In this document: piece by piece, positions 7,171 through 28,791 of the stretch
How the letters are laid out: each line of letters starts with the position of its first letter
Numbering within the stretch: the first letter of the stretch is position 1
Notes under the pieces: generated by a model
Seen by the model: the letters and a program-made list of their open reading frames with translations, nothing else
Databases searched by the model: none
What the model was told of the DNA's origin: nothing
Position numbers and translations under genes: made by a program
Source: a virus
Strand: one strand, 5' to 3'
IMG/VR virus record: IMGVR_UViG_3300042396_000723
Location: 32,001-96,000 of that record
Length of the DNA stretch: 64,000 nucleotides

Positions 7171-7460
7171 ATTGATAGTTTTGGGATTGTTCCCTGATTC
7201 GACTAAAAACTACTTGATTGCTAAATATTAAAAACCCAATAAAGAATGCTGTTAAATAATAAATAGTATTCATTAGAAACAACCTCCCATTAAAAAGGGC
7301 ATTACGTTATGTGAGCAGTAAACTCCAAATAGATTAACCAAGTCGATAACGATTCCCACTTAAAACCCTCCCATTAATAATTCTAATTGTTGACTGATTT
7401 CCTTGGGTTGAGGGATTTTTAGGATAACTTCTATTCTCTCAACCCGTGTTTCTAGTTCGT

Positions 7461-7970
7461 TTATTCTCCGAAAAAACTTCTCACAGCTAACTGGGATTTT
7501 TTTGACTTTCCCACCGCTTCGTTAAGTTGCTGTTCTAAAGCCTCAATTGAGATTTCTTGATCAAAGTCTAAGAGGTTTCCTAACTCATCCCCGGACGCTT
7601 GATCAATTGCATTCTTGTACTCAGGAATCCCAACTAATAAAGCCTTGGCGGATTCAATTTCATCGTCTGCAATTTCATTTAAGAAAGCCAATTGTTTTGC
7701 TTTTTTAAATAGTTTAGCATCTTCCCGCCCGGAGTTTTGACCCGCAACAACAACGGCTTTAGTGTTAACAATCGCGTTATCCTTAGCTTTCTTTTGGGTC
7801 TTAACAACTGCATCATTGAGTTGATCTGTTGTACTCCCTTTGGTGATAGCTGATTTAGTCTGCTGTTTCGGCTGTTCCGCCTGGGTTTGGGGTTTCCGTG
7901 AGTTCTGATACAACTCGGTAAGTTCCGGTTGAGTGTTGTTGTCGGTAGCTTGTGATTCTTGATAGGACAT
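7461..7970 (-). CDS. hypothetical protein
   Basis: 169 aa; 5' end overlaps ORF 7855-8328 by 116 nt, so one of the two starts is doubtful. Confidence 0.3.
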   Translation of the reverse strand: MSYQESQATDNNTQPELTELYQNSRKPQTQAEQPKQQTKSAITKGSTTDQLNDAVVKTQKKAKDNAIVNTKAVVVAGQNSGREDAKLFKKAKQLAFLNEIADDEIESAKALLVGIPEYKNAIDQASGDELGNLLDFDQEISIEALEQQLNEAVGKSKKSQLAVRSFFGE

Positions 7971-8328
7971 CGACTTTAAACTCCTTAAATAGTTGGGTTG
8001 TGTTTAGCATTAACATCTTCTGGAAAACTTCTATCTCGATAGATAAACCGTTGTTTAAACAGTGGTGATAGAGGCTTTGGAACTGATAGTAGGTATGGTG
8101 TGGGTATTTGGAACTAACAAAAATATGCAATAGGTACAAGATGTTTAATTCCGCCCAATCAACAGGTTTTCTTGTTATCCCCAAAACCCCTTTTCTGTCT
8201 GCGATTGTCTGGTGGGAAACCTTGAAAATCAACTGAATCTCTTTTGAGGAAAATGGTTCTAAAGCGTTTTCGTCTCTAAGATCTATTGTTTTCCTAATTC
8301 CCCCTTGCCTCGATCTAAAATCGCCCAT
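7855..8328 (-). CDS. hypothetical protein
   Basis: 157 aa; overlaps previous ORF. Confidence 0.25.
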   Translation of the reverse strand: MGDFRSRQGGIRKTIDLRDENALEPFSSKEIQLIFKVSHQTIADRKGVLGITRKPVDWAELNILYLLHIFVSSKYPHHTYYQFQSLYHHCLNNGLSIEIEVFQKMLMLNTTQLFKEFKVDVLSRITSYRQQHSTGTYRVVSELTETPNPGGTAETAD

Positions 8329-8451
8329 TCATGGCTTCCTATAGTCCTCCGTTCTGGGTTTACTCAGGCTTGATTTAACCTGATGTACCAATAGTAAACC
8401 CACCTCTAAGGGTGGGCATAGGGGAAAATACATCTGGGGTGGAATTTGCCA

Positions 8452-8655
8452 CTACTGATTATTCTTTTCCTGCCATTCCATAACATAAAGCGTGTGTTTG
8501 CAAAATCGTTTCAATACATCTCGGTCAACCCATAAGTCCACAAAGGTATTATCTTGATTAATCGTTGCAATACAGTATTGACCATTAAGGTTTTGCCCTA
8601 ATTTTATTTCCCCTTTTAGGTGATGGACTTCTTGAGAGTGTGAATAATTGTCCAT
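8452..8655 (-). CDS. hypothetical protein
   Basis: 67 aa; start overlaps upstream stop. Confidence 0.3.
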   Translation of the reverse strand: MDNYSHSQEVHHLKGEIKLGQNLNGQYCIATINQDNTFVDLWVDRDVLKRFCKHTLYVMEWQEKNNQ

Positions 8656-8852
8656 TATATTTTTCCCTCTGATTGTGCTAACAAACCTAAGTGGCGACGA
8701 AATTGAACGTATTGGGGTTTAGGGTCGTAGCCTTTGCGACGGTGATTTTTTACCGTGTCAGGGTCGGCTCCTGTTAACAATGAAATTTGGTTGATGGATT
8801 TTCCGGTAAGTAAACGAAATTCATCTACAGATAGTTCTTTTTGTGCAAACAT
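8655..8852 (-). CDS. hypothetical small protein
   Basis: 65 aa; first gene after a divergent intergenic region. Confidence 0.3.
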   Translation of the reverse strand: MFAQKELSVDEFRLLTGKSINQISLLTGADPDTVKNHRRKGYDPKPQYVQFRRHLGLLAQSEGKI

Positions 8853-8977
8853 TGTAATAGCCTCAACTGGGTTAAAGAATGGGTTGGGGTGGGGCTGATC
8901 GGCTGATATCCGGTCAGCCCCTTTCAGTATTTGTGTTAATGTTATGCTGATTATATGCTAAACGACATAAAAAAACA

Positions 8978-9229
8978 ATGGACAAAAGGTATAGAATTAC
9001 GATTAAGATCCCTGCGTGGCATAATAAGCGATTAAGGGAATGGGCAGCACTCAAGGGTGTAGCACCCACAACCTTGGCGGGTAACGTATTGCAAGCTCGA
9101 ATAGAAGCAAACGACGAACAAATTGTGGCGATGTTAAAGTCTCGGTCTGAGGATGAAGGATTAACTATTGAGGAATTTATTAAAAAGATTGTCAATGATT
9201 CAGATGATCAAGAAAAGCCCACTAGGTAG
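8978..9229 (+). CDS. ribbon-helix-helix-like small DNA-binding protein (putative)
   Basis: 83 aa; N-terminal RITIKIPAWHNKRLREWAALKGV resembles an RHH beta-strand plus helix; lone plus-strand gene inside minus block. Confidence 0.4.
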   Translation: MDKRYRITIKIPAWHNKRLREWAALKGVAPTTLAGNVLQARIEANDEQIVAMLKSRSEDEGLTIEEFIKKIVNDSDDQEKPTR

Positions 9230-9281
9230 AGTGAGCTTCTTTGGAGTTATCGGGAATAAGGGCAGGAGTTGTAAGATTGTT

Positions 9282-9716
9282 TTAAATAAGACTGTTCAAA
9301 CTATTTACAATTTCTTCCTTATTGATTTCATCATCTACAAATCTTTTTGCATTGATTGAATCAATTAAAAATTGAAAAGCTCTTGATTCAGTAAGATACA
9401 TTGGGATATTTAAAACGTTGTCAAGTTCACCGTTAAATATTTTATTTGCTATTATCACGGCATCCTCAACATTTAGAACGCCATCATGCACCAACAATTC
9501 CACAATGCCAATTAATCCCATGTAGAATCCAGCTTTTAATAAATCCGAATAATCGGGTTTTACTATTTTGGCTTTTTCGTTAATTTCAACCGTAGATTTA
9601 TGAGCTAAACTGTATTCTAAACAGTATTTGAAATTATCTGGGTTCAATTGTGAGAGTAAAATAACGCCTTTTTCACTCACAAACTTTGAGCCAGAATCTA
9701 ATTCTTTAATGTCCAT
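9282..9716 (-). CDS. hypothetical protein
   Basis: 144 aa; AT-rich ORF convergent with the RHH gene. Confidence 0.35.
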   Translation of the reverse strand: MDIKELDSGSKFVSEKGVILLSQLNPDNFKYCLEYSLAHKSTVEINEKAKIVKPDYSDLLKAGFYMGLIGIVELLVHDGVLNVEDAVIIANKIFNGELDNVLNIPMYLTESRAFQFLIDSINAKRFVDDEINKEEIVNSLNSLI

Positions 9717-9829
9717 TTTGTCTCCATAATGTTTCCTGTGGGATGCCCCTACTCTGACGGGAATCAGAAATAGGGGCTTTTAATTTATTTTATCGCCACC
9801 ATTGTCCGTCGCTGATGAAGTCTTGATCG

Positions 9830-10159
9830 TTAGATAAACAAACTTAACTGACCCTCACTAGCAACCGCTTTACGTTTTGGATTGTTCCACGATTCCCCCC
9901 GACTGTTGACACGGTTTCGCCAGTGGGGATAGGTTCTGAACGGTTGTTTCAGTGCCACAAATTTAGGAATCAGTTTCAATTCCTCAAGCCAGATTTTGTA
10001 AGGACTGTATTCCCTGGCTCCGAATGGGTAGCGGTCGTTGCAATACTTCCGGGCATCCTTAGAGTTGATCTCTTCGCTCAGACAAGCGCATTGTGCTTCG
10101 TACTCGATCAAAGAGTCTGCAATCTTTGAGATTGAACAATCGCGCCAAGACATTTGCAT
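9830..10159 (-). CDS. hypothetical protein
   Basis: 109 aa ORF. Confidence 0.35.
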   Translation of the reverse strand: MQMSWRDCSISKIADSLIEYEAQCACLSEEINSKDARKYCNDRYPFGAREYSPYKIWLEELKLIPKFVALKQPFRTYPHWRNRVNSRGESWNNPKRKAVASEGQLSLFI

Positions 10160-10290
10160 TTCAATTCCCTCCAGAATAATAATTCAACCAATACCAAAAC
10201 GTTGTCAGTTGCCACTCGTGGGGTTTTTTACGACTGACAATATTGCGCCATAGTCTGAAGTTGGCTCGAAAGTCACGCAGGCCAGTCCAA

Positions 10291-10572
10291 TCAATCATGT
10301 TTCCTCCTGTGTTTTTTGGGGTTTAGCGATCGCAAATAATCTGCAATCGCTCGGCAATGGTTTGGATCATTAACATCTTCATGACACTGAATCCAATGTT
10401 TAATCAGTGTCAAATTGTAGCCATACCCCGCCCGATTCCCCCCAGGGCGTTTGTAATAATGAATATTTTCGATCCATTTTTTGTGAGAGTGTTTAACGGA
10501 ATCGGGATTTTTTAATCCCAGGAGTTTGACCGCTTCATGTTTGGAGCCAAATTCGTAGGCTGTGGCAATCAT
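10291..10572 (-). CDS. small DNA-binding protein, excisionase/MerR-like HTH (tentative)
   Basis: 93 aa; pattern HYYKRPGGNRAGYGYNLTLIKHWI resembles excisionase-type HTH proteins; weak. Confidence 0.25.
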   Translation of the reverse strand: MIATAYEFGSKHEAVKLLGLKNPDSVKHSHKKWIENIHYYKRPGGNRAGYGYNLTLIKHWIQCHEDVNDPNHCRAIADYLRSLNPKKHRRKHD

Positions 10573-10958
10573 AAACCTTGAATCCTTAACTGAATAGGAA
10601 CCTCGTTAATCTCCAACAATCCTTTTTTAGAAAGTTTTGCCAATTCAACCTGAACATCTTGCACGTCGAATTTAATTTCTTTCTCCTTCCCCAATGGAGT
10701 TACGCCAGAACAGTCAAGTATTGTGATTAGATTTTCTGGTGTAACTTCTAAATCTTTATTGCAGCCATAAAGAAGACGAAGCATATAGAGAATGTAGACA
10801 GATTTGTTTATTCCCCCTGCTATTAAATCCGATTGCAAATTATAAACAGATTGGACTAATTTACCCTGTTTATTCATCACTGTCCCCATATTTTTCTCTG
10901 GGGCTTTTAATTGAATGACGTTATCAATTTCAGTGGTTTCAATTTGTTCAACTTGCAT
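10569..10958 (-). CDS. hypothetical protein
   Basis: 129 aa; start/stop overlap with neighbour. Confidence 0.35.
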   Translation of the reverse strand: MQVEQIETTEIDNVIQLKAPEKNMGTVMNKQGKLVQSVYNLQSDLIAGGINKSVYILYMLRLLYGCNKDLEVTPENLITILDCSGVTPLGKEKEIKFDVQDVQVELAKLSKKGLLEINEVPIQLRIQGL

Positions 10959-10967
10959 AATCTTCTC

Positions 10968-11261
10968 CTATCTAGTAAAACTGATTTGAGCATCCCAGAG
11001 GGTTTGAAGCCACTGGTTTTGCGTGGGCATTAAGTGTTGATTTTTTTCTCTTAACGGATGCGGGAACATCCTCCGAGCTAGTTTAGATGCTGCGATCGCA
11101 TCTTTTTTAGAATGAAAATACCCAGGGAAACGTCGCCCTGATGCCAAGTGAGTAACCCCCCAGTAATCGTCGTCAATCCGATGTACAGCGATCCACTTTC
11201 TGATAGTTGCCTTTACTTTCCATCGCCCATAAATAGTATGGGTTACAATCGTTTTTCTCAT
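10968..11261 (-). CDS. hypothetical protein
   Basis: 97 aa. Confidence 0.35.
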   Translation of the reverse strand: MRKTIVTHTIYGRWKVKATIRKWIAVHRIDDDYWGVTHLASGRRFPGYFHSKKDAIAASKLARRMFPHPLREKNQHLMPTQNQWLQTLWDAQISFTR

Positions 11262-11449
11262 GACTCAACCCTTGTTCTTGTGATAACTGAAACGGGAACC
11301 CCGTCCCAATCTTCCTGGATATAGTATCTGCCAGTGCCAGATTTATTCATTTCCTCGCACTTTTTCCGAGCTTGATTAAATCTCGGATAAGACGCGATAA
11401 TAACGCCTTTTCCTAGTTCCCAAATCGCGTAGCCTTTCTGTTTGCTCAT
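11258..11449 (-). CDS. hypothetical protein
   Basis: 63 aa; overlapping stop/start with downstream gene. Confidence 0.3.
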   Translation of the reverse strand: MSKQKGYAIWELGKGVIIASYPRFNQARKKCEEMNKSGTGRYYIQEDWDGVPVSVITRTRVES

Positions 11450-11541
11450 CTTTCTGTCTTAATGTTAATTTGGCATATTCAATAGCAAAAAATATGCCCC
11501 CTTTATACTGTTTTTCCCTGTATGGATTGGGGGCTTAAACT

Positions 11542-11697
11542 TTAAGCTCGTTTTAATCTCGAACCATATTGAACGTGATGGTATAGAGTCTCAACAGTTT
11601 TGAACCGATGCCCACAGTCTGGACATTTCCGCTCTCGGTACTCTTTCCTCGTGCCGACTACACAAGTCTTTTCAGCGTTGCATTTAGGACATTTCAT
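11542..11697 (-). CDS. zinc-ribbon small protein (not in ORF track)
   Basis: My own translation: MKCPKCNAEKTCVVGTRKEYRERKCPDCGHRFKTVETLYHHVQYGSRLKRA (51 aa), CxxC...CxxC; GGAGG upstream; start overlaps the TAA of a 32-aa upstream ORF (TAATG). Confidence 0.45.
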   Translation of the reverse strand: MKCPKCNAEKTCVVGTRKEYRERKCPDCGHRFKTVETLYHHVQYGSRLKRA

Positions 11698-11898
11698 TAC
11701 AACACCTCCTCCTTCTTGTTGTAAAAGTCTTTTAGTTCGCTAATGGCTTTAATGAGAAGATCAATTTCTGGAGAATAACGCTTCGTACTTGACATCTGGT
11801 TTCTGGTTAATGGGTTAAAAAAGGGGTGTAGCTAGAGGGCTTTCCACCCCAGGAGATTCTTACTTACACAAACGTTTAAATGATTAAACGATTTTTGT

Positions 11899-12054
11899 CT
11901 AAACATCACCTCCTTCATCTTCGGCTTCAATATCAATTGAAGCATCCGCTTTTTCTAGCAGCCATTCGATAAATTCTTGGTAGATTTCTTCTTTGGTCAA
12001 AGAAGGATAATCTATTTCTTCTGTGTCACCACAAGCTCTAAATATTGCTTTCAT
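11899..12054 (-). CDS. small acidic protein (not in ORF track)
   Basis: My own translation: MKAIFRACGDTEEIDYPSLTKEEIYQEFIEWLLEKADASIDIEAEDEGGDV (51 aa); ATG overlaps TGA of upstream gene (ATGA). Confidence 0.35.
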   Translation of the reverse strand: MKAIFRACGDTEEIDYPSLTKEEIYQEFIEWLLEKADASIDIEAEDEGGDV

Positions 12055-12347
12055 GATTCTCCTTTCTGCTTGATATAATCCCCAAGCGATAAAACATAAA
12101 CTTCTGTCCCTTGTTCAATTGTTCCTTCGCTCCATTCAGGCTTGGGGATTCCCTTAGAGATTCCTAACAAAGTAACTGTTACCGAGGGGACGCTGTTGCC
12201 GTATCCGTTGGTAAAGCGGATATGGGTTAGTGGCTTATGAAATCGGGATTGATAGTAAGGTTTAATCTCCCGATATTCCTCTAGCTTCACGCCGGAGGCT
12301 ATCATGTCAAACCACTTTTTCTTGATGGCTAGAGTTAAGGTTTTCAT
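12051..12347 (-). CDS. ASCH/DUF3850-like domain protein (tentative)
   Basis: 98 aa; N-terminus MKTLTLAIKKKWFDMIASGVKLEEYR resembles the ASCH beta-barrel N-terminal pattern. Confidence 0.35.
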   Translation of the reverse strand: MKTLTLAIKKKWFDMIASGVKLEEYREIKPYYQSRFHKPLTHIRFTNGYGNSVPSVTVTLLGISKGIPKPEWSEGTIEQGTEVYVLSLGDYIKQKGES

Positions 12348-12379
12348 AACCCTTTTCCTGCTCTCATAAGTTCATTGAT

Positions 12380-12589
12380 CTAGCGAGTGCGATCGCGCCC
12401 CGCTTGTTGACCATCTTCATAACACCCTTGATCAAGGTGTGCTATTACTTCATCCCCTTTCAGGAGCCACCATTTCCGGTGATAAGGGACAGAACCCGTA
12501 GCGGTTCCCCAGAGTTCAACGCCTTCGGGCATCGCGTAATAATCTTTGTCGTAATTTGAAGCCACCCGTCTAATTTCTGATGCGTTCAT
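12380..12589 (-). CDS. hypothetical protein
   Basis: 69 aa. Confidence 0.3.
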   Translation of the reverse strand: MNASEIRRVASNYDKDYYAMPEGVELWGTATGSVPYHRKWWLLKGDEVIAHLDQGCYEDGQQAGRDRTR

Positions 12590-12668
12590 AATTCTCTTAT
12601 TTATGCTGGGTTTTGAATTGGGGGAATTTCACCCCCGGAGTTAATCAGTCAAGAACCAAGGCAATTAT

Positions 12669-13352
12669 TTAGAAATCGAAATTACTTCCAGTGAGAACTT
12701 TTACTTCAACAGGTGGCAGCGCCGAGGGGAGTGTGGGAGTTTTGTTCCCAACTAAATAACTCAATTCATCTTGAGCAAGACCATCAATGCACTGCATCAT
12801 CCGAGTCCCTTCCATGTCGGTCATTCGAGACAGATTAGCCGGATCAGCTAAAACCGCCGACGCTTGATCTAACATCGCCCAGTCGGTGCGCTCCTGCCAA
12901 GACCACTTAAGGCTGTAATAATTAACAGGCTTGATAACGTTGTTGGCATCGGGTTTGGAGCTTGACTGTTTGACAAATTCGGGTACAAAAATGCCTGTCG
13001 CGGGTTCCACACCTCGCGCTTGAACTTCTGTGACGAGGCGGTTAAAATCCCCTAAAGATTGGGTTTTTAAGTACGTCACCATCACCACACCTTTAGGCAG
13101 TTCCCCCGATTCAGCGACGAACCAAATCTGTCCCCAGGTTGCGCCTTGAGTTTGTCCGAGGTCGCCCCAGAATTTGGAGAATTTCAGGATTGTCATGGAA
13201 CATTTAGAGCCATAATCGGTGTCGCCAATTGTCCATTGTCCGGCTTGGCAATTGTTACGAACGGCAATAGGGAAATTGGGAACTAAGATTGCATCTTTCG
13301 GCTTAGCTCCGAAGACGGAAATAGTGGATTTTTCGGCTGCTGTTTTTGTCAT
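12669..13352 (-). CDS. hypothetical protein
   Basis: 227 aa; long ORF, no motif recognised. Confidence 0.45.
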   Translation of the reverse strand: MTKTAAEKSTISVFGAKPKDAILVPNFPIAVRNNCQAGQWTIGDTDYGSKCSMTILKFSKFWGDLGQTQGATWGQIWFVAESGELPKGVVMVTYLKTQSLGDFNRLVTEVQARGVEPATGIFVPEFVKQSSSKPDANNVIKPVNYYSLKWSWQERTDWAMLDQASAVLADPANLSRMTDMEGTRMMQCIDGLAQDELSYLVGNKTPTLPSALPPVEVKVLTGSNFDF

Positions 13353-19984: not shown

Positions 19985-21015
19985 TGCCAACATTCGCAAC
20001 ATTATTCATGGGCGGAGGCGGTGCAGATTTGGGGTTAGAGGCCGCAGGGTTTAAGTCTTTATGGGGAATTGAAAGAGATCCTAAAATTGCAGAAGTAGCA
20101 CGATTAAATTTCCCAAATACCAAAGTATTTAATTCTTGCGCAGGAGACATAAACCCCCGCAGTCTTCCCTATGTTGACCTGCTTTGGATGAGTCCCCCGT
20201 GCCAACAGTATTCAAACGCTAGACGGGGTAATTTAGGCGATCACAAAGACAAGGACGCGGGGCTGTACTGTAGCAGTTATATCGCAGCGATTGATCCTCG
20301 ATGGGTAGTTTTAGAAAACGTCCCTGGCTACTCAAAATCACCTGTATTCGAGAAAATCCTACAATCCTTAATTCGCCACGGATATCGCTATCATTGGTTA
20401 ATACTTGACGCGGCGGATCACGGGGTTCCCCAAAACCGGAAACGGTTGATTATGTGGGCAGTTAAAAATGATCAACCTCTCCCCTATTTCCCCGAATCAA
20501 AACCCAAAAAGGGATGGTATCAAGCCATTGCTGACTTAATCCCAGAAATGCAGGACTGTGAGCTTGCAGACTGGCAGATTAAGCGACTAAATGAATTGGG
20601 TTATTTACCAGAAAAAGCCTGGATTGATATTGGGAAACAACTCATTAGACAGGCTACAGTTCGGGAGTCAAACGATCCAAGTTTTACTATTGTGAGTGGT
20701 CATGTTAACTCGCATTCTCCTATCCTGTTAATCCCCCGAGCGGGAGCTTGCATCAAGAATATTCTCCCGACTCCACAGAACAAACCCTGCCCAACAATTC
20801 GAGCTATGAAGGATGTTTCAACCCATTGGGCGGACATCGTGCAGGGAAGCCAAATTAAACGAATTAGTCAGAAAGCGACGGCACGGCTCCAGACTTTCCC
20901 CGACTCCTATCAATTCCCAGAATCCAAAACTTTAAGCCAACAAATAATAGGAAACGCCGTGCCTCCGTTATTGGCTAAAGAATTAGGTCTGGCAATCTTA
21001 AAATCAATTAACTAA
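19984..21015 (+). CDS. DNA (cytosine-5)-methyltransferase
   Basis: 343 aa; motif I FMGGGG, PC motif SPPCQQYS, ENV motif LENVPG. Confidence 0.9.
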   Translation: MPTFATLFMGGGGADLGLEAAGFKSLWGIERDPKIAEVARLNFPNTKVFNSCAGDINPRSLPYVDLLWMSPPCQQYSNARRGNLGDHKDKDAGLYCSSYIAAIDPRWVVLENVPGYSKSPVFEKILQSLIRHGYRYHWLILDAADHGVPQNRKRLIMWAVKNDQPLPYFPESKPKKGWYQAIADLIPEMQDCELADWQIKRLNELGYLPEKAWIDIGKQLIRQATVRESNDPSFTIVSGHVNSHSPILLIPRAGACIKNILPTPQNKPCPTIRAMKDVSTHWADIVQGSQIKRISQKATARLQTFPDSYQFPESKTLSQQIIGNAVPPLLAKELGLAILKSIN

Positions 21016-21017
21016 CC

Positions 21018-21461
21018 ATGAAAACATCAACTAAAGCCAAAACCAAACCCGCTAAAAAAGGATTTCAACCCGCCCCTAAAATTCATGACAATGACTTACA
21101 TATATTTTCTTGTGAGTGCCTTTGGTATGACTCAGAAACCGACGAGGAACTATTGACCGAATTGTGGACAGTCAAACTCGATAAACGACGGTTTCGGACT
21201 GATGTCAGGCAAGCCATTATTACGGGGTTGATCTATTGCTTTCTTGAAACACCGGAAGCAACGGAACGGCATATTAACAGGGTGTTTTTTTGGAATAATA
21301 AATCCCGTGCCTATGAGCCATTAGGGGCGGTGTCTGACGCGCCGATGGACGGATCTAGTCCGGTTGATTTTGAAGCCGATCCGGTGGTGGCTTATGAGCG
21401 ATTAAAAGCCCTTTGTGTCGAGATCGAAGTTATCAAGGTTGACGATTGCTTTTGCTCTTGA
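21018..21461 (+). CDS. hypothetical protein
   Basis: 147 aa. Confidence 0.4.
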   Translation: MKTSTKAKTKPAKKGFQPAPKIHDNDLHIFSCECLWYDSETDEELLTELWTVKLDKRRFRTDVRQAIITGLIYCFLETPEATERHINRVFFWNNKSRAYEPLGAVSDAPMDGSSPVDFEADPVVAYERLKALCVEIEVIKVDDCFCS

Positions 21462-21485
21462 CCTTTTAAAAATACACAAATAAAC

Positions 21486-21514
21486 TTGTTTTTTTTGCGT
21501 TATTTGTGTATAAT
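21486..21514 (+). promoter_or_regulatory. sigma-70-like promoter candidate
   Basis: TTGTTT (21486-21491), 17-bp spacer, TATAAT (21509-21514), preceded by TGTG; followed by about 260 nt of non-coding sequence. Confidence 0.4.
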
Positions 21515-21781
21515 GAAAACAGTCAAGAATCAAGGTTTACCAATGTAGTTTGTTGGTAAATAGTTAACCAGTCTAAGCTCTTTACTGAGCTACGTTATTG
21601 GGAAGTGTTTAAGTTCATACCTTGGGATGCGTTGCCAGTTCCAAGCTCTATAACTAAGTGATTAAACAGATGTACAGCAATTAAGTCAGCAATACTGCTG
21701 ATACCCTCTTAATAAGCAGCGATTTCCCACAAATCCCCATAATCTGTTATAACTGGTGAGTAGTTATATGAGGTTGTTTTT

Positions 21782-21982
21782 ATGGTAAGACCCCACGAAC
21801 ACAGGCAAGAAATCAAAGCCAGACTCAAACCAGAAGATAGGGAGAAGTTGAAAGCCCTCGTCGTTGGCATGGGTTATCGTTATTGGAGGCAGGAGTCACC
21901 GGAACCCGCATGGACTGAGTTTTTGGAGGCGATCGCAACGGGCGATATAATTCTTTACAAAAAAGTCGGGGGAGGGGGTTGA
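21782..21982 (+). CDS. hypothetical protein
   Basis: 66 aa. Confidence 0.3.
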   Translation: MVRPHEHRQEIKARLKPEDREKLKALVVGMGYRYWRQESPEPAWTEFLEAIATGDIILYKKVGGGG

Positions 21983-22043
21983 CCTTTTGGGATAAGTGGG
22001 GTACAGTTATAAATGTAGAAGGTTGAAATAAAGGAACAAGACG

Positions 22044-22274
22044 ATGACCACTCAAACCGAGCCAACTAAAATTTACTGCGACCGGAAATTTTCACTTTAC
22101 GACGTAACACCCTGGACAGCCGCAAGGCTGACGAATTTCTTTAACTTGGTTGACGATGGTGAAGACGTGAAACGTGCCGTCAATGGGTTGAAAACCTGGA
22201 AAGGTAGTCAGTCCTACCGCTTGACAATGAGTGACAAAGCTTCGATTGATTACGTTATTGAATGCTACGGTTAA
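22044..22274 (+). CDS. hypothetical protein
   Basis: 76 aa. Confidence 0.35.
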   Translation: MTTQTEPTKIYCDRKFSLYDVTPWTAARLTNFFNLVDDGEDVKRAVNGLKTWKGSQSYRLTMSDKASIDYVIECYG

Positions 22275-22342
22275 AGATTAATTAACCGAGTAAGGTGGCT
22301 GCCCTACTCGGTTCGAAGTCAATCATTTAAGAGGAGTATACC

Positions 22343-22852
22343 ATGTCAAGCAAAAAACAGGTCAAGCAATCTTTAGAACTGACACTAAGTTTAGCCGAAT
22401 CACTAGGGCCATTAACACGGTCAGAAGCTAAAGAGTTTTTTGGATTATTGGGAGAACTCAATAAAGTTTTCAGTAAAGTAGTTGACCCCGATGCTCACGG
22501 CCTAAAACCCGAACCCAGTCCCGAAGTAGTTAAACACCCCATTGATGCCCTACTCAAAAAAGGAAAGGTCGAACTACCAGAGGGACGCTACAAACAACTG
22601 ATTCAGATTCATGACGAGCTTTTAGTCCTCAAGATTAAATTCTTGAGTGCGAAGCAAAATCAGAATGTCACCTGGTTCCCCCTTGAGTGGAACGGGGATA
22701 AGTCAGCCGCGTTGTACTTGTCATCGTCGGAATGGTCTATAGCTCCCATCAAGTACCGAGATGACAACGATTTGACGGGCGAGTGGGAAGGATTTGATCT
22801 TACTGAGTTCATGAGTATGAACTGCCCAGAGTTTGATCAAGACGAATATTGA
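22343..22852 (+). CDS. hypothetical protein
   Basis: 169 aa; AGGAG upstream. Confidence 0.4.
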   Translation: MSSKKQVKQSLELTLSLAESLGPLTRSEAKEFFGLLGELNKVFSKVVDPDAHGLKPEPSPEVVKHPIDALLKKGKVELPEGRYKQLIQIHDELLVLKIKFLSAKQNQNVTWFPLEWNGDKSAALYLSSSEWSIAPIKYRDDNDLTGEWEGFDLTEFMSMNCPEFDQDEY

Positions 22853-22904
22853 TTTCATGGGAGGTCTTACCCTCCCTCCAAGAAGTAAAGCAGGAGAACA
22901 AATT

Positions 22905-23063
22905 ATGCTATATCGCATCACCCGAATCAAAACCGCACCCGACAGAAAAGACCGTCAAGGGTATTATTTAGAAGCCTTGAATGAGTTAGAGGCTTTGACA
23001 AGATTTCATAACCAATTCCCTGAATTTGTAGGGGAAGAATTAGAGTTAGAGGAATGGAATTAA
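22905..23063 (+). CDS. hypothetical small protein
   Basis: Start moved to ATG 22905 (MLYRIT..., AGGAG upstream) from track start 22833. Confidence 0.3.
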   Translation: MLYRITRIKTAPDRKDRQGYYLEALNELEALTRFHNQFPEFVGEELELEEWN

Positions 23064-23088
23064 AAGACCTCTAATTCAACTTAAAACT

Positions 23089-23118
23089 AACCAGGGGTTT
23101 ATATTCCCTGGTTTTTTG
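23089..23118. terminator. intrinsic terminator between convergent genes
   Basis: Stem ACCAGGG / CCCTGGT with 9-nt loop, followed by TTTTTTG. Confidence 0.6.
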
Positions 23119-23122
23119 CTGT

Positions 23123-23719
23123 TTATCTAATCACAGGGACAGGAATAATCCCCATCAGAATGCCAGATATTTCCTGAAACATTCGCGTAGTTGTTTGCGT
23201 TGCGTCAATTATAATCCAGTTATTTTGCCTAGCCAATTCCAGATATCCGAAGCGAACCCGATCTAAAAAAAGCAAGTCTCGTTCAACCTTGTCCAGAGGT
23301 TTGTCGAGATCGCGGCGCACCGCCACCTCAACAGGACAATCGAACAAAATCACCATATCGGGATCAATTCCCCCCGTCGCCTCGTGATTTAGCTTCCTTA
23401 AATTATCTAAATTAAGCCCGTGCCCATATCCCTGATAGGCAAGTGTTGAATCCGTGTATCGATCACACAATACCAAATCAGAATCTTCTAACAAATATCT
23501 AATCGTGGGATTGTGTTTAATCCTATCCTTCAGGATTAATTTAAGCTGCTGCTCCGGCGTTAAACACCCATTCTTTAATTCAAAACGAACGTCATAATCG
23601 CAGGGTTCTCTTGTGATGTAGAACTTTAACTTTAACGCCGTGAAATGGTCGCAAAGTTTTCTAATTTGGGTTGTTTTCCCACTGCGGTCAATACCTTCAA
23701 AAGCAATCAATTTACTCAT
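23123..23719 (-). CDS. tmk: thymidylate kinase
   Basis: P-loop FEGIDRSGKTTQ and DRY motif CDRYTDSTLAYQG; start placed at ATG 23719 (MSKLIAFEG), overlapping the stop of the upstream small ORF (ATGA). Confidence 0.85.
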   Translation of the reverse strand: MSKLIAFEGIDRSGKTTQIRKLCDHFTALKLKFYITREPCDYDVRFELKNGCLTPEQQLKLILKDRIKHNPTIRYLLEDSDLVLCDRYTDSTLAYQGYGHGLNLDNLRKLNHEATGGIDPDMVILFDCPVEVAVRRDLDKPLDKVERDLLFLDRVRFGYLELARQNNWIIIDATQTTTRMFQEISGILMGIIPVPVIR

Positions 23720-23880
23720 TTCATCCTCATCCAATTTTTAATCAAATCATCTTTAATCATACCTTGCCTTATTAATTCAATTATATATTCTCTAGCTTCC
23801 TCCAGTGTCAATATATCCACATTACGTTTAATTATCGCAAGTTTAAATTCTTGCTCCATTGTTAGCTGTGTTGGTTCCAT
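23716..23880 (-). CDS. nblA: NblA-like phycobilisome degradation protein (not in ORF track)
   Basis: My own translation: MEPTQLTMEQEFKLAIIKRNVDILTLEEAREYIIELIRQGMIKDDLIKNWMRMK (54 aa); matches the NblA pattern L-[ST]-x-EQ-x-F ... RQ-x-M and NblA length. Confidence 0.5.
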   Translation of the reverse strand: MEPTQLTMEQEFKLAIIKRNVDILTLEEAREYIIELIRQGMIKDDLIKNWMRMK

Positions 23881-23915
23881 TTCCGTTGTTATAAGAATAT
23901 CAACACATAGATTAT

Positions 23916-23974
23916 ATCAAAAAATATTTTGATTTTTATACCTCTTTAATACAGAATCAAAATATTTTTTTGAT
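23916..23974. promoter_or_regulatory. paired AT-rich dyad elements (operator candidates)
   Basis: ATCAAAAAATATTTTGAT (23916-23933) and its near reverse complement ATCAAAATATTTTTTTGAT (23956-23974), centres about 40 bp apart. Confidence 0.4.
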
Positions 23975-24062
23975 TTACCTGTTGCCAATTGCTCCTGATG
24001 ATGGATTTAATTTGCCAATGCGTATAGTATAGAAATATATAAATACAGCAGGAGATGGCACA

Positions 24063-24272
24063 ATGCGCGACTATATAAACAGAGTCCCCGACTATGGGGA
24101 AAAGAAAAAGCCTCACAATCTGAGTTTGACCGACACGGCGTGGCAACGGCTTGATAAATTAGCTGCGCTCTTGGGAGTGTCCAGGAGTGAGTTCGTCGAA
24201 CGCCTATCCCGTGGAGCGATTGCCCCACAAGACTTACAAGCCTTTTATAAAATTTTTTTAAAAAAAGGTTGA
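24063..24272 (+). CDS. ribbon-helix-helix-like regulator (putative)
   Basis: 69 aa; HNLSLTDTAWQRLDKLAALLGVSRSEFVERLSRG resembles RHH strand-helix-helix; AGGAG upstream. Confidence 0.45.
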   Translation: MRDYINRVPDYGEKKKPHNLSLTDTAWQRLDKLAALLGVSRSEFVERLSRGAIAPQDLQAFYKIFLKKG

Positions 24273-24296
24273 CAATTTCTAAAGTATGCGTATATT
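24269..24296 (+). promoter_or_regulatory. sigma-70-like promoter candidate
   Basis: TTGACA (24269-24274), 16-bp spacer, TATATT (24291-24296), about 30 nt upstream of ATG 24328. Confidence 0.45.
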
Positions 24297-24327
24297 ATAG
24301 AATTTGTAAACGCACAGAGGTAACGCC

Positions 24328-25131
24328 ATGACAACCGCAACCACAGCAAAAACCAAAACCGCAGCAAAAACTAAAACCCCTGAGTGGAAATGGAATAATA
24401 ATCTGGGGTGTGATGCCCTAAAACTCCCTACAAAGGGATGTCACGTTGACAACAGAGGAAACGTCTGGAAAGACGGCGACTCCATTGGTAACGTCACCCC
24501 GTTGCCAAATTCAGTTAAGGTGACACCCCTAGAATGGGTTGTCACCCACGAACAAAAACAGGAAGCCGTTTCCTGCGAAAAGCTACACGGGAGCTACAAA
24601 AAAAACGCGACTCCTGCCCGTCGTAAAGAATCCCCCGATGGGATGCGGGGAGGCAATTCTCAGTGGGGAGAAGTCTCTGGCCCTAAAGCCCATTTTGTGG
24701 CTGATGAGTACGAGGTGATTGTCACCTACACGGCAACTAAAGCCGTCAATCAATTCAGGGAAATTATTGAGGGAAAACCCAAGTTTCCTTCCCCCACTAC
24801 CATTGCCTATGAAACGGGCTATGGGAAAGAAACGGAATATACCGTGACCGAGTTGGCCGTCTTAGACTTGCCTACCGAAAAAGTGGAGAAGGTCTACACA
24901 GACCAACGAAAACACCTCTATGGAGAGGCAATCAAGGTTGTCAAAGAATACCTTGACAATTTAGATAAACCCGTTGAAGGGCTGTTAAAGGTCGGTGACA
25001 GCGTGATTCACCCTGTATATGGACAGGGAACTGTCACAAAGGCTTTCGGGACTAAAAACCCCACCTACCAGTCCGTTTGCGCGGATTTCCCCTGCGGGAA
25101 CAAGATGGTAGGAAAATGTGACCTGATATGA
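24328..25131 (+). CDS. hypothetical protein
   Basis: 267 aa; Thr/Ala/Lys-rich N-terminus. Confidence 0.4.
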   Translation: MTTATTAKTKTAAKTKTPEWKWNNNLGCDALKLPTKGCHVDNRGNVWKDGDSIGNVTPLPNSVKVTPLEWVVTHEQKQEAVSCEKLHGSYKKNATPARRKESPDGMRGGNSQWGEVSGPKAHFVADEYEVIVTYTATKAVNQFREIIEGKPKFPSPTTIAYETGYGKETEYTVTELAVLDLPTEKVEKVYTDQRKHLYGEAIKVVKEYLDNLDKPVEGLLKVGDSVIHPVYGQGTVTKAFGTKNPTYQSVCADFPCGNKMVGKCDLI

Positions 25132-25187
25132 CCTTTTCACTATGATTACCCCACGGAAGCCACAGCTAAAAACAGAGAGGAAAAACA

Positions 25188-25685
25188 ATGACAACTTTCA
25201 CAAAACCAGAAAACCTTTTTGATTCAGTTGATTTTCAAGGATTTGTCGTCGGAGAAGACGACGCGGTAACAACAGTATTGTATCGGGGTCAAGTCCCCGA
25301 TTTTAAGCGGAATAAAAAACAGGTCGTAAAGTTTGACTTCGACCTTCACTGCCTAACGGCAAAACACTGGTTTCTAGCTATAGAGCTATCTACTTCTGAC
25401 CTTTTGTTTAAGGAGGTAGAAAGTTGTCCTGTTGAACTTCCCAATGAGTTCAAGGATTCAGTTGTCCTGCACCCTGTAAACGGGAAAGTGGGCGTTTGGG
25501 TTGCGCCGATGTCACCCACTGATGTTTCGGGTTGGCAAAAAGCTATGGAAACTACAGCGACAGAGGTAAAAGCCTCTGGTAGTGTGAAGTTTCGAGGGCT
25601 TCACAACCTGTTCAACAGGCTATCCCGCGTTACCCCCAAAACAGGGGTTGTTGGGGGTGCTAAATTCCCGACATGGAGAGACTAA
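25188..25685 (+). CDS. hypothetical protein
   Basis: 165 aa. Confidence 0.4.
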   Translation: MTTFTKPENLFDSVDFQGFVVGEDDAVTTVLYRGQVPDFKRNKKQVVKFDFDLHCLTAKHWFLAIELSTSDLLFKEVESCPVELPNEFKDSVVLHPVNGKVGVWVAPMSPTDVSGWQKAMETTATEVKASGSVKFRGLHNLFNRLSRVTPKTGVVGGAKFPTWRD

Positions 25686-25712
25686 AAGTAGCGATCTCAG
25701 GTTAGCTCCTAG

Positions 25713-25737
25713 CACGGTTCGATTCCGTGCGGTCGCA
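25713..25737 (+). other. tRNA 3'-end-like fragment (T-arm plus acceptor strand)
   Basis: CACGG-TTCGATT-CCGTG stem-loop with canonical T-loop, then CGGTCGC-A; I could not find a matching 5' acceptor strand, D-arm or anticodon arm upstream. Confidence 0.35.
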
Positions 25738-25774
25738 TTCCCGAAAGGGATTATTAACTACATAGGCTAAAGCA

Positions 25775-26056
25775 ATGAAGAAACATCAAATCAATGAGCA
25801 ACTTAGTAAGTTATTGAAACTTACTAACTGCTCTAACCTAGAGGTAACGGTTGACAACAACACCAGGGATTGTATGACCGTCTGGAAGCTATGGGGTAAA
25901 GGTGGGCAAATTGCCCAAGCCGAAGCACGGTTTGGATCGGAATATTCTGATCAACCCGATGGTTTTGCCTTCTATTTAGAAGGCTACAACTGGACAGATT
26001 ACTGTCCTACAGTTCAAGATTGTGCCAGCCAACACAAGGAGCGCGCTCTTGTCTAA
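25775..26056 (+). CDS. hypothetical protein
   Basis: 93 aa. Confidence 0.35.
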   Translation: MKKHQINEQLSKLLKLTNCSNLEVTVDNNTRDCMTVWKLWGKGGQIAQAEARFGSEYSDQPDGFAFYLEGYNWTDYCPTVQDCASQHKERALV

Positions 26057-26222
26057 TATGACCCATTATTTCGGCTACGAAGTCGAGATTAAAGATAAAT
26101 CAGGGAAGTACGCCTGGTTTATCTACCAAGACGGGGTAATCATCTTTTCAAGTGGCTACGATTACCCCACAGAAGCCACAGCCTATGACTGCGCTTGCAG
26201 TCGCATTGACACATTATTCTAA
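26022..26222 (+). CDS. hypothetical protein
   Basis: 66 aa; likely starts at an internal ATG (MTHYFGYEV); contains a 23-nt repeat also found at 25144. Confidence 0.3.
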   Translation: MPANTRSALLSNMTHYFGYEVEIKDKSGKYAWFIYQDGVIIFSSGYDYPTEATAYDCACSRIDTLF

Positions 26223-26233
26223 GGAAAAATCAA

Positions 26234-26614
26234 ATGGAAATCATTAACGCTACACCCCATCAAATCGTTATCTGTAGCAACCAAGGGGTTGTCCAAGATG
26301 CAAAGACTAAGCAATTCACAGCTTCGGCTGTTGAGATCCTCCACACCCTGCCACCATCGGGAATCATCCCCCGCGTGGCGATGGGGAATACCGAATCCGA
26401 ACCCATTTTAGGTATTCCAGTCCAAAGCGTTCAATATGGCGAGATTGAGGGACTCCCCCCTGCGTCTCCCGATGTTTATTATGTAGTGTCGGGACTGGTA
26501 GCAGCAGCCGCCGTTAAAGTGAACAGGGCTGATTGCCTGGCTCCGGGTGCGCTAGTCCGCAATTCTGCCAACCCATCAGAGGTGTTAGGCTGTCTTTTTT
26601 TGCAAAAGCCCTGA
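26234..26614 (+). CDS. hypothetical protein
   Basis: 126 aa. Confidence 0.4.
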   Translation: MEIINATPHQIVICSNQGVVQDAKTKQFTASAVEILHTLPPSGIIPRVAMGNTESEPILGIPVQSVQYGEIEGLPPASPDVYYVVSGLVAAAAVKVNRADCLAPGALVRNSANPSEVLGCLFLQKP

Positions 26615-26721
26615 TTGGCGACGGTTGCCCCCGGTGTGGTAGTCATAGGCTGGTTAGATATGGTTACACCGAACACGGTCGCCGCCGAATGAAATGCAAG
26701 GATTGTAATAAATTATTTTAA
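26533..26721 (+). CDS. zinc-ribbon peptide resembling a transposase N-terminal Zn finger (possible relic)
   Basis: C-terminal 31 aa CPRCGSHRLVRYGYTEHGRRRMKCKDCNKLF fits the CPxCG...CKxC ribbon seen at N-termini of some IS transposases; N-terminal part overlaps previous ORF and may not be coding. Confidence 0.3.
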   Translation: MPGSGCASPQFCQPIRGVRLSFFAKALIGDGCPRCGSHRLVRYGYTEHGRRRMKCKDCNKLF

Positions 26722-26725
26722 AATC

Positions 26726-26758
26726 AACCCTCTAAATATTTAGAGGGTTCTTTTTTTG
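26726..26758. terminator. strong intrinsic terminator (bidirectional candidate)
   Basis: Perfect 24-nt palindrome AACCCTCTAAATATTTAGAGGGTT followed by CTTTTTTTG; between convergent genes. Confidence 0.7.
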
Positions 26759-26759
26759 A

Positions 26760-27449
26760 TTATCTGATAATCGTTAACGTCGTAGTCTCTGGCAACTTCA
26801 CCCACGGATAAACGATCCGCCAAACATCGTGACTATAAATATTTTTCGTCATGTACCGGGCGTCGGGAACTTGTTTAATCTCTATCCCCATCTTAATACT
26901 CATCGCTTTGAGAGGTCGCCAACTGAAGTTAGACTCATGAACTTTATTGAACTTGGCAACCCTGATGATTGACGAATAATCAAAAAGTTCATCCAAAGCC
27001 TCGGACAGTTGATTGTTTTCTTCCTCAAGCAGTGCTTTCTCGGCCTCTAACTTTTCTACCTCTAACGCCAATCGTCCAGCCTCTAGCAAAGCCTGAGCAT
27101 AGGTTTGTGGTAACGCAAGCGGGGTCTGAACGTGGTTATTCTTAGCAAGGGAGAAAGCCTCAACTAACCGTTCTTTGCAATCCAAAACCTGATCACTGTT
27201 TCGGGAAAACGTCATCAAAAGTGTTGCTTGTGCTTCATTCAAGAAACAGTAAGAGACTTCGTAAGCCCCACCCTGCGGGCGTCTCACCACGTCCGTTTTA
27301 AACGCGACTGGTGTTTTTCGTTCTAATCGGTCTAAATACTTTGTGATTGTTTGCAGTAAGTTCTTATGTTGAATCCCCAGTTCATCAGCAATCAATCGGG
27401 AATCGACAACTAAGGTGTCATTCTGTGTGGTAATGTCAAGAATAGCCAT
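26760..27449 (-). CDS. phage antirepressor-like protein (Rha-like N-terminus, KilAC-like C-terminus)
   Basis: 229 aa; N-terminus ITTQNDTLVVDSRLIADELGIQHKNLLQTI resembles Rha regulators; C-terminal half is a paralogue of the C-terminus of ORF 49642-50370. Confidence 0.6.
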   Translation of the reverse strand: MAILDITTQNDTLVVDSRLIADELGIQHKNLLQTITKYLDRLERKTPVAFKTDVVRRPQGGAYEVSYCFLNEAQATLLMTFSRNSDQVLDCKERLVEAFSLAKNNHVQTPLALPQTYAQALLEAGRLALEVEKLEAEKALLEEENNQLSEALDELFDYSSIIRVAKFNKVHESNFSWRPLKAMSIKMGIEIKQVPDARYMTKNIYSHDVWRIVYPWVKLPETTTLTIIR

Positions 27450-27604
27450 TGTTTACTCCGTATAAGTAAGTTGTGGTTAGACCCGTTCAAAAGCCAAAAA
27501 CTTTTGGCGGGTTGCCTATTTATATTATAATACAAACCCAATATCTTCACCAATAAAAATAACCCAACAATTAATAAATCATCGGGTGTGTTGTCCAATT
27601 TTAA

Positions 27605-28036
27605 TCAGTGTGCATTATTATTATAGCACCCTATTTCATCATCAACCATTGCTGAAACCAAAGGTTTTCTTTCTGGAAATAAATCTTTAATTGACCTGAC
27701 AGCATCAATATAAGACTTACCGAGGTATGTTCCATTCTCTCCAAAACTAACAGGGATATCAGAAACCGCCCACCACCCAGACCGACCTCTGAACTCAATA
27801 TACCAATAACCATAGTTGGTATTTTCTCCCGTTGTTTGGGATATTAAATTATTTAATTGTTCTGTTTTTGTTTGCATTCGCAACATCATTTCCTCTCTAA
27901 TTTTCCCTTGAAGTTCCCAGATATCTTTTTTTATAATGTCGTTCATCTGATTAGCTAATCTCATCTTGTACCCTGAATCCGTAGTAGCATTCTCGTACTC
28001 GGTTATTAAATTTTTTAATGCTTCCGTATCCATCAT
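27605..28036 (-). CDS. hypothetical protein
   Basis: 143 aa; AT-rich. Confidence 0.35.
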   Translation of the reverse strand: MMDTEALKNLITEYENATTDSGYKMRLANQMNDIIKKDIWELQGKIREEMMLRMQTKTEQLNNLISQTTGENTNYGYWYIEFRGRSGWWAVSDIPVSFGENGTYLGKSYIDAVRSIKDLFPERKPLVSAMVDDEIGCYNNNAH

Positions 28037-28344: not shown

Positions 28345-28791
28345 TCAGGTTTGATTGCCGTCGTTAGTGTTTGAATTACTTGCATTGGTAGATACCCCTT
28401 TTAGCTTCTTTATTATTGCAATAGCTTTTTGATGTTCTGAAGCTAAGTGTTGATATTTTTCTTGAATGTTTACTAATTGTTCAGAAAAATTAGAGTTAGT
28501 TTTCTCCTGTAGCGCGGCTATCTTTTCCCTGAGTTCGTTGTTTTCAACCTCAAGCCTGTTTAAATCATTCTCCCTATAATTAGCCTCCCTCTGAAGGCTT
28601 TTAATTTCACTTTGTAATTCAACTATAACCTTGATGTTTTTGGTATCAAAAATTCTATTGATAGCAATACCAATTACACTACTACCACCCAACAGAACGG
28701 TAATCAAACCAAATACTGATTGAATCGTTTGGTCTGTAGTAGCTGTTGTTGTATTTGATTGGAGAATAACATGAAAAAAAGACATCAACAT
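28345..28791 (-). CDS. membrane-anchored coiled-coil protein
   Basis: 148 aa; one TM segment then a heptad-like coiled coil. Confidence 0.4.
   Translation of the reverse strand: MLMSFFHVILQSNTTTATTDQTIQSVFGLITVLLGGSSVIGIAINRIFDTKNIKVIVELQSEIKSLQREANYRENDLNRLEVENNELREKIAALQEKTNSNFSEQLVNIQEKYQHLASEHQKAIAIIKKLKGVSTNASNSNTNDGNQT

Follow-up and report, generated by a model that had tools for sequence, protein, structure and literature searches.

Two AT-rich dyads, here called D1 and D2, lie between a leftward nblA-tmk unit and a rightward gene for an RHH (CopG-type) protein in a relative of Planktothrix phage PaV-LD, and we propose that they form a non-transcribed two-site operator controlling nblA-tmk, a candidate reading to which we give a probability of roughly 0.45. 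The dyads far exceed what chance would produce, D1 sits where a repressor site is expected on a promoter that very probably serves nblA-tmk, and comparison of sequences across related phages ties the pair to nblA and not to the adjacent RHH gene. The preliminary description of this DNA had read the two elements as the operator pair of a dimeric repressor beside the RHH gene. The two-site geometry in a divergent promoter region stands, with D1 now placed on a conserved extended -10 promoter, and the link to the adjacent RHH gene has weakened, the gene and the dyads not being inherited together. The promoter, the placement of D1 and D2, their restriction to the PaV-LD clade and the argument about RHH as the binder are all new relative to that description.

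The window (the whole 64,000-nt stretch of DNA analysed here) is related to Planktothrix phage PaV-LD (NC_016564), with 88% identity across 44% of the length of positions 20000-28000 and 94.5% identity over the 701 nt surrounding the dyads. The annotated PaV-LD equivalents at this locus are ORF021L (thymidylate kinase), ORF022L (NblA), ORF023R and ORF024R, the last two corresponding to the RHH gene and the gene for a 267-aa protein, and Pfam matches to NblA, thymidylate kinase and RHH_1 bear out the flanking genes first proposed for the dyads (Table 1). Within the leftward unit, the stop codon of nblA and the start codon of tmk (ATG at 23719) share bases in an ATGA. A tblastn search of the window for the PaV-LD integrase gave no hit. 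Between the methyltransferase and tmk, window positions ~21000-23100 and PaV-LD 7436-12731 hold different small ORFs, and a PAPS reductase adjoins tmk in PaV-LD and several relatives. One contig of a 'Terrimicrobiaceae' MAG (L097, JBIPMC010000376.1) agrees with the PaV-LD-like contig 3300035190_001584 of IMG/VR in length, in coordinates and in its nblA-dyad-RHH sequence; it is probably DNA of a phage that was binned with the MAG by mistake.

Table 1. Genes, dyads and predicted promoter elements at the nblA-RHH locus (window coordinates)
Feature	Position	Strand	Details
Thymidylate kinase gene (tmk)	23123-23719	-	Pfam E 8e-35; equivalent to PaV-LD ORF021L
nblA, first gene of the leftward unit	23716-23880	-	54 aa; Pfam NblA E 6.6e-13; equivalent to PaV-LD ORF022L
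Extended -10 promoter, very probably of nblA-tmk, TGATATAAT	23919->23911	-	Perfect match to TGnTATAAT
Dyad D1, ATCAAAAAATATTTTGAT	23916-23933		ATCAAAA-AATA-TTTTGAT; about -12 to -29 of the predicted nblA-tmk promoter
Spacer between D1 and D2	23934-23955		22 nt; the element's three polymorphic positions (23937, 23941, 23946) all fall here
Dyad D2, ATCAAAATATTTTTTTGAT	23956-23974		ATCAAAA-TATTT-TTTTGAT; about -52 to -70 of the predicted nblA-tmk promoter
Weaker candidate leftward promoter	23959-23988	-	TTGGCA (23988->23983)-N16-18-AATATT/TATTTT; consensus scan only, 9/12
-10 region of the likely RHH promoter, ATGCGTATAGTATAGAA	24018-24034	+	With ATAGAA box
RHH (CopG-type) gene, neighbour of the dyads	24063-24272	+	69 aa; RHH_1; equivalent to PaV-LD ORF023R (hypothetical, 69 aa)
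Predicted promoter of the next gene, with ATGCGTATATTATAGAA	24269-24302	+	TTGACA-N16/18-TATATT/TATTAT; -35 box overlaps the RHH stop codon
Gene for a 267-aa protein	24328-25131	+	

Reading the sequence confirmed both dyads and the near reverse complementarity already reported for them: D2 is the reverse complement of D1 with one additional T. Both have the form ATCAAAA-N4/5-TTTTGAT with two ATCAAAA half-sites each, the half-site centres being 11 bp apart in D1 and 12 bp in D2, and the centres of the two dyads are 40.5 bp apart, which amounts to four helical turns and places them on the same face of the helix. A repeat search returned the pair as an inverted repeat of 16 nt with 100% complementarity (23919-23934 and 23955-23970, 20 nt between the arms), and because of this repeat the region would fold, as single-stranded DNA, into one long hairpin (-11.3 kcal/mol, z = -5.2). 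No perfect inverted-repeat arm of at least 16 nt arose in 2000 dinucleotide-preserving shuffles of the intergenic region (182 nt, 27% GC), the largest reaching 14, and four or more matches to D1 with at most three mismatches were seen in 0 of 100 shuffles of the whole window (expectation 0.39). The strict motif has no further copy in either the window (64 kb) or the complete genome of PaV-LD (95 kb), as fits a local operator and not a dispersed repeat; one looser match in the window, at 28645, falls inside a coding region. Scanning IMG/VR for exact D1 gave 78 loci, with the D1/D2 pair present only in PaV-LD-like loci and the remainder being single chance matches on unrelated AT-rich viral contigs. 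A half-site-like fifth copy, ATATCAACACATA, is found at 23897-23909 (compare ATATCAAAAAATA at 23914-23926), a short way past the point where nblA transcription is predicted to begin.

The left end of D1 supplies the TG and the first T-A of TGATATAAT, an extended -10 element that reads toward nblA from 30 nt upstream of its ATG and consists of TATAAT (23916->23911) and TG (23919->23918). From it we predict a transcription start for nblA-tmk near 23904, which corresponds to ~13572 in PaV-LD, and a 5' UTR of ~24 nt. The 14-mer TTTTTTGATATAAT is identical in at least 11 diverged loci (L098, L100-L103, L107, L108, L153, L157, L214 and L221), where the nblA-tmk modules sharing it encode an NblA just 74-79% identical to that of the window and have strongly diverged upstream flanks. 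In PaV-LD, moreover, 9 of the 13 TGnTATAAT motifs are followed within 100 nt by a start codon on the same strand, compared with a background of 7.4% (binomial P ~4e-8). Given the conservation of TTTTTTGATATAAT across diverged modules and the tie between TGnTATAAT and gene starts, TGATATAAT is very probably the nblA-tmk promoter, and the pattern suggests that -35-independent host-type promoters are common in the PaV-LD phage group. TGnTATAAT motifs occur in the window at 23911, 27620 and 49562. The -10 box of the weaker TTGGCA leftward candidate falls within D2. In the literature, we found no promoter or transcript mapping for PaV-LD ORF022L or ORF023R.

These positions suggest how an operator could work here. 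A dimeric protein, or a dimer of dimers, would bind D1 and D2 cooperatively, and occupancy of D1 would keep the host SigA RNA polymerase off the TG/-10 and the spacer DNA, setting the timing or strength of production of NblA, with its role in phycobilisome degradation, and of thymidylate kinase. Both predicted transcripts begin outside the dyads, and no Rfam RNA element matched positions 23500-24500 at E values up to 1, so that a function as double-stranded DNA is the natural reading. The adjacent RHH protein would be one candidate for the binder, and a different regulator of the phage, or a factor from the host, is no less likely. Against an operator stand the 1-bp difference in half-site spacing between D1 and D2, the lack of any candidate regulator that co-varies with the dyads, and the fact that the promoter-side half of D1 (TTTTTTGAT) is conserved as the promoter itself, meaning that the palindrome could stem from copied promoter sequence.

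Judged by its sequence, the product of 24063-24272 is a genuine CopG-type RHH protein. It scores 21.6 bits with Pfam RHH_1 (cut-off 20.5) and belongs to a family with 90 representative homologues at E<1e-3, many of them from filamentous cyanobacteria and annotated as CopG family. RHH_1 matches 26 of 50 family members, and the family profile matches the CopG structures 1b01 and 2cpg with E 1.4e-3. The AlphaFold (AF2) monomer has low confidence (pLDDT 65), with the two core helices present and no strand, and a Foldseek search with this low-confidence model returned no significant match.

Most dyad-bearing loci also have an adjacent RHH gene, and exceptions occur in both directions. In five loci (L031, L043, L064, L073 and L089) tmk, nblA, D1 and D2 are co-linear with the window to 24025 and the sequence is identical up to ATGCGTAT, after which, from 24026, the RHH gene is replaced by ~230 nt of unrelated sequence; the order there is a possible 27-aa ORF (MRRVLLVRMRIHPLLVNSFFINVYSWD), a terminator hairpin, a GC hairpin and a PcfJ-like gene. 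No RHH relative was found on the contigs of these five loci (6-60 kb; 43-60 kb for L043, L064, L073 and L089) by tblastn of contig parts or by an RHH scan of the viral collection, a scan that, like those of metagenomes and genomes, reached near-identical copies only, the more diverged homologues having come from protein searches. In the other direction, RHH homologues with nearly the same beta-strand in L091 (84% identity), L226 (70%) and L227 (66%) have no ATCAAAA..TTTTGAT dyads upstream. On these comparisons the RHH gene behaves as a replaceable cassette, and the RHH-less variants are recent recombinants, whose dyads are possibly orphaned operators. In L107 and L108 the 267-aa gene lies directly beside nblA, with no RHH gene.

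A separate motif accompanies the RHH gene. The rightward RHH promoter is most likely TAGTAT within ATGCGTATAGTATAGAA, because the same 17-mer sits in a near-perfect promoter at 24269-24298. In all four RHH lineages (66-100% amino acid identity), a TTGAC(A/G) -35 box contains the TGA that ends the RHH gene, and ~11 nt past this box comes a palindromic -10 region of the form (A/T)(G/A)CGTATA..ATAGAA. The imperfect palindrome spans ~30 bp, is centred between (A/T)GC and GTAT, has TTCTA..TAGAA arms (11/15), and is located at 1028-1070 in L091, 735-780 in L226 and 459-500 in L227; a half copy also precedes the RHH gene in PaV-LD-type phages. ATAGAA is the most widely shared hexamer in eight RHH flanks, and ATAG[AG]A occurs nine times in them, with 1.25 expected (0 of 5000 shuffles), an enrichment to be read in the light of the partial homology of these flanks. 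The same motif is absent from 23881-24010. The arrangement is a likely operator/promoter for RHH and resembles the 'TAGA' boxes of Arc. The dyads lie ~60-120 nt upstream of the likely RHH -10, which makes self-repression of RHH through them unlikely, and the motif distribution suggests that 24018-24034 and 24269-24302 are better candidates for RHH operators. The recombination breakpoint of the RHH-less variants (24025/24026) falls within the former.

Two further features were noted around the RHH genes. An AT-rich near-palindrome, CCTTTTATAAAATTTTTTTAAAAAAAGG, at 24243-24268 spans the final codons of the RHH gene, directly before the TTGACA box of the next promoter, and may be an UP-like element. 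In L091, positions 1-818, upstream of the 84% RHH homologue, contain A(A/G)TTGAAA(C) nine times, chiefly in the form GAGAATTGAAAC, together with a perfect 24-bp palindrome, TTTTCAATTATTAATAATTGAAAA; because a primase-helicase gene lies downstream, these repeats may be iterons or an origin. The GAGAATTGAAAC repeat is not enriched in the window.

The sequences of D1 and D2 do not change from the window to PaV-LD or to any related IMG/VR, JGI or ENA locus with a dyad-type region. Among 13 haplotypes, 0 of 37 dyad positions are polymorphic, compared with 8 of 109 other intergenic positions, a difference short of significance (one-sided Fisher test, p=0.09); three of these eight lie in the 22-nt spacer. 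The dyad-bearing sequences are at least 94% identical in the region, so similar that the invariance of the dyads is weak evidence of selection. Beyond the PaV-LD clade, to which the dyads are confined, none occurs in any of the more distant nblA-tmk modules compared, meaning that nblA expression does not depend on them.

At the homologous position, sister lineages instead carry a different palindrome, a GC hairpin of the form TTTTGTATC-N5/6-GATACAAAA. It is located between divergent promoters at ~2880-2905 in L098 and L100-L103 and at ~2885-2910 in L107 and L108. Its stem is conserved and its loop reads CCCCCT in some lineages and the reverse complement, AGGGGG, in others. In L031, on the reverse strand, a GC hairpin lies ~420 nt to the right of D1, and other distant nblA-tmk modules have a co-directional upstream gene with a terminator in place of the hairpin. 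The comparison suggests that a palindrome upstream of the nblA promoter is a recurring feature. The same NblA (P0007, 77% identical to that of the window) is found with dyads and RHH upstream in L009, L071 and L099 and with GC hairpin and PcfJ in L098 and L100, which points to a recombination junction within nblA, in its 5' part. The NblA homologues retrieved were all from phage-type nblA-tmk modules, with no host nblA promoter among them.

It is conceivable that palindromic operator cassettes upstream of the conserved extended -10 are interchangeable and control NblA timing in PaV-LD-type phages, AT-rich D1/D2 serving in one clade and the TTTTGTATC-N5-GATACAAAA hairpin in sister clades, each read by a different phage or host regulator. 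We hold this broader proposal to be quite unlikely; if true, it would amount to lineage-specific rewiring of an auxiliary metabolic gene.

Several readings compete with a two-site operator served by some other phage or host regulator. The neighbouring RHH protein might itself bind D1 and D2, each dyad taking up a dimer of dimers, and so repress nblA-tmk, its own promoter or both. The protein is of the right type according to Pfam and the family profile, its gene adjoins the dyads at most loci that bear them, and, on geometry only, the 11-12 bp between half-site centres and the overlap with the promoter fit an arrangement of subsites; Arc-type RHH operators have a similar subsite spacing. The five loci that keep the dyads without RHH and the homologues of 84, 70 and 66% identity that lack dyads weigh against this reading, as do the distance to the likely RHH -10 and the ATAGAA palindromic promoter, which, unlike the dyads, goes with RHH in all four lineages. 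On balance, we regard the RHH protein as an improbable binder of the dyads.

A stronger and serious rival, which we still consider on the unlikely side, is that the dyads have no dedicated binder and are a neutral quasi-palindrome inherited from an ancestor of the PaV-LD clade, formed for instance by template switching that copied T-rich promoter-proximal sequence, and persisting because the clade is young; any effect would then be intrinsic, through A/T-tract curvature or UP-element-like action. In sister lineages, the sequence aligned with the D2 region is AT-rich and forms no palindrome (AAAGCAAACTATTTTAGATT against AAATCAAAAAAATATTTTGATT), lineages lacking dyads still conserve the -10-side half of D1 as promoter sequence, and the conservation test did not reach significance. 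The flipped loop of the sister hairpin also suggests structure-mediated rearrangement of palindromes at this site, and the region can itself fold into a hairpin as a single strand. However, a perfect 16-nt repeat of two units, each with internal twofold symmetry, is more than a single hairpin-forming event would require, a phasing of 40.5 bp and an exact overlap with the -10 and promoter spacer are as expected of an operator, and all three substitutions in the element fall in the spacer between the dyads. A site for DNA transactions (a replication origin, an attP-like recombinase site, a packaging site or the ends of a miniature mobile element) seems highly improbable. An AT-rich palindromic structure with cruciform potential at a strand-switch point would suit such a role, and mosaic junctions are found nearby, inside nblA and at 24025/24026. 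These junctions, however, lie outside the dyads, the replication genes are ~10 kb away in PaV-LD, the window has dyads and still no homologue of the PaV-LD integrase, and a motif that is single-copy in both the window and PaV-LD is no MITE.

Other identities were considered for the dyads and set aside. No intrinsic terminator is predicted in 23881-24062, where the stem consists almost wholly of A-T pairs and the genes on either side point away from the dyads. For an attP site or the ends of a mobile element, the same two observations apply, namely no integrase homologue in the window and a single-copy motif. NtcA-activated promoters have GTA-N8-TAC ~41.5 nt upstream of the start and 22 nt upstream of a TAN3T -10; here, GTA-N8-GTA (23952->23939) lies at the right distance with the TAC half missing, and position 23941 is polymorphic among relatives. 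In a by-eye comparison, the IHF consensus (WATCAANNNNTTR), Fur/Zur 7-1-7 boxes and HLR1 did not fit the dyads.

Viral NblA strips the host light-harvesting antenna, and its timing and amount affect the photosynthesis of an infected bloom-forming cyanobacterium. For nblA, our analysis supplies a concrete predicted promoter (TGATATAAT, 23911-23919) and a candidate operator pair, and it redirects the search for a binder away from the RHH neighbour, whose more probable target is a separate promoter of the ATAGAA type. Should the dyads prove neutral, the locus would simply be an annotated promoter.

Among known systems, the two-site operator proposed here most resembles lambda OR/OL and the P22 Arc/Mnt sites at Pant/Pmnt, which likewise have in-phase palindromic sites whose half-sites are spaced by roughly one turn of the helix, one site on the -10/spacer, a divergent region and a gene for a small DNA-binding protein beside it. 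Unlike those operators, the dyads are almost pure A/T, are restricted to one narrow phage clade and are not co-inherited with the neighbouring regulator gene, and they are candidate sites known from sequence. CopG/Arc RHH repressor-operator pairs offer a second likeness, in that the neighbour is an RHH_1/CopG protein and the 11-12 bp spacing would suit a dimer of dimers; here, however, the conserved motif of the RHH flanks (ATAGAA inverted boxes in a TTGACA promoter) is at 24018-24034 and 24269-24302 and not at the dyads. Cellular nblA regulation through NtcA, NblR and RpaB/HLR1 concerns the same gene with control upstream of the promoter, whereas the phage dyad region has no NtcA box or HLR1-like direct repeats and the dyad motif is not known to match any of these regulatory sites. 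Regulation of cellular nblA also includes antisense interference (PMC13283749). Finally, TGATATAAT matches extended -10 (TGnTATAAT) sigma-70/SigA promoters in its exact consensus, the lack of a recognisable -35, the T-rich tract upstream and its conservation in diverged relatives, and it differs from typical members of that class in that the predicted promoter lies within one arm of a palindromic structure of 62 bp.
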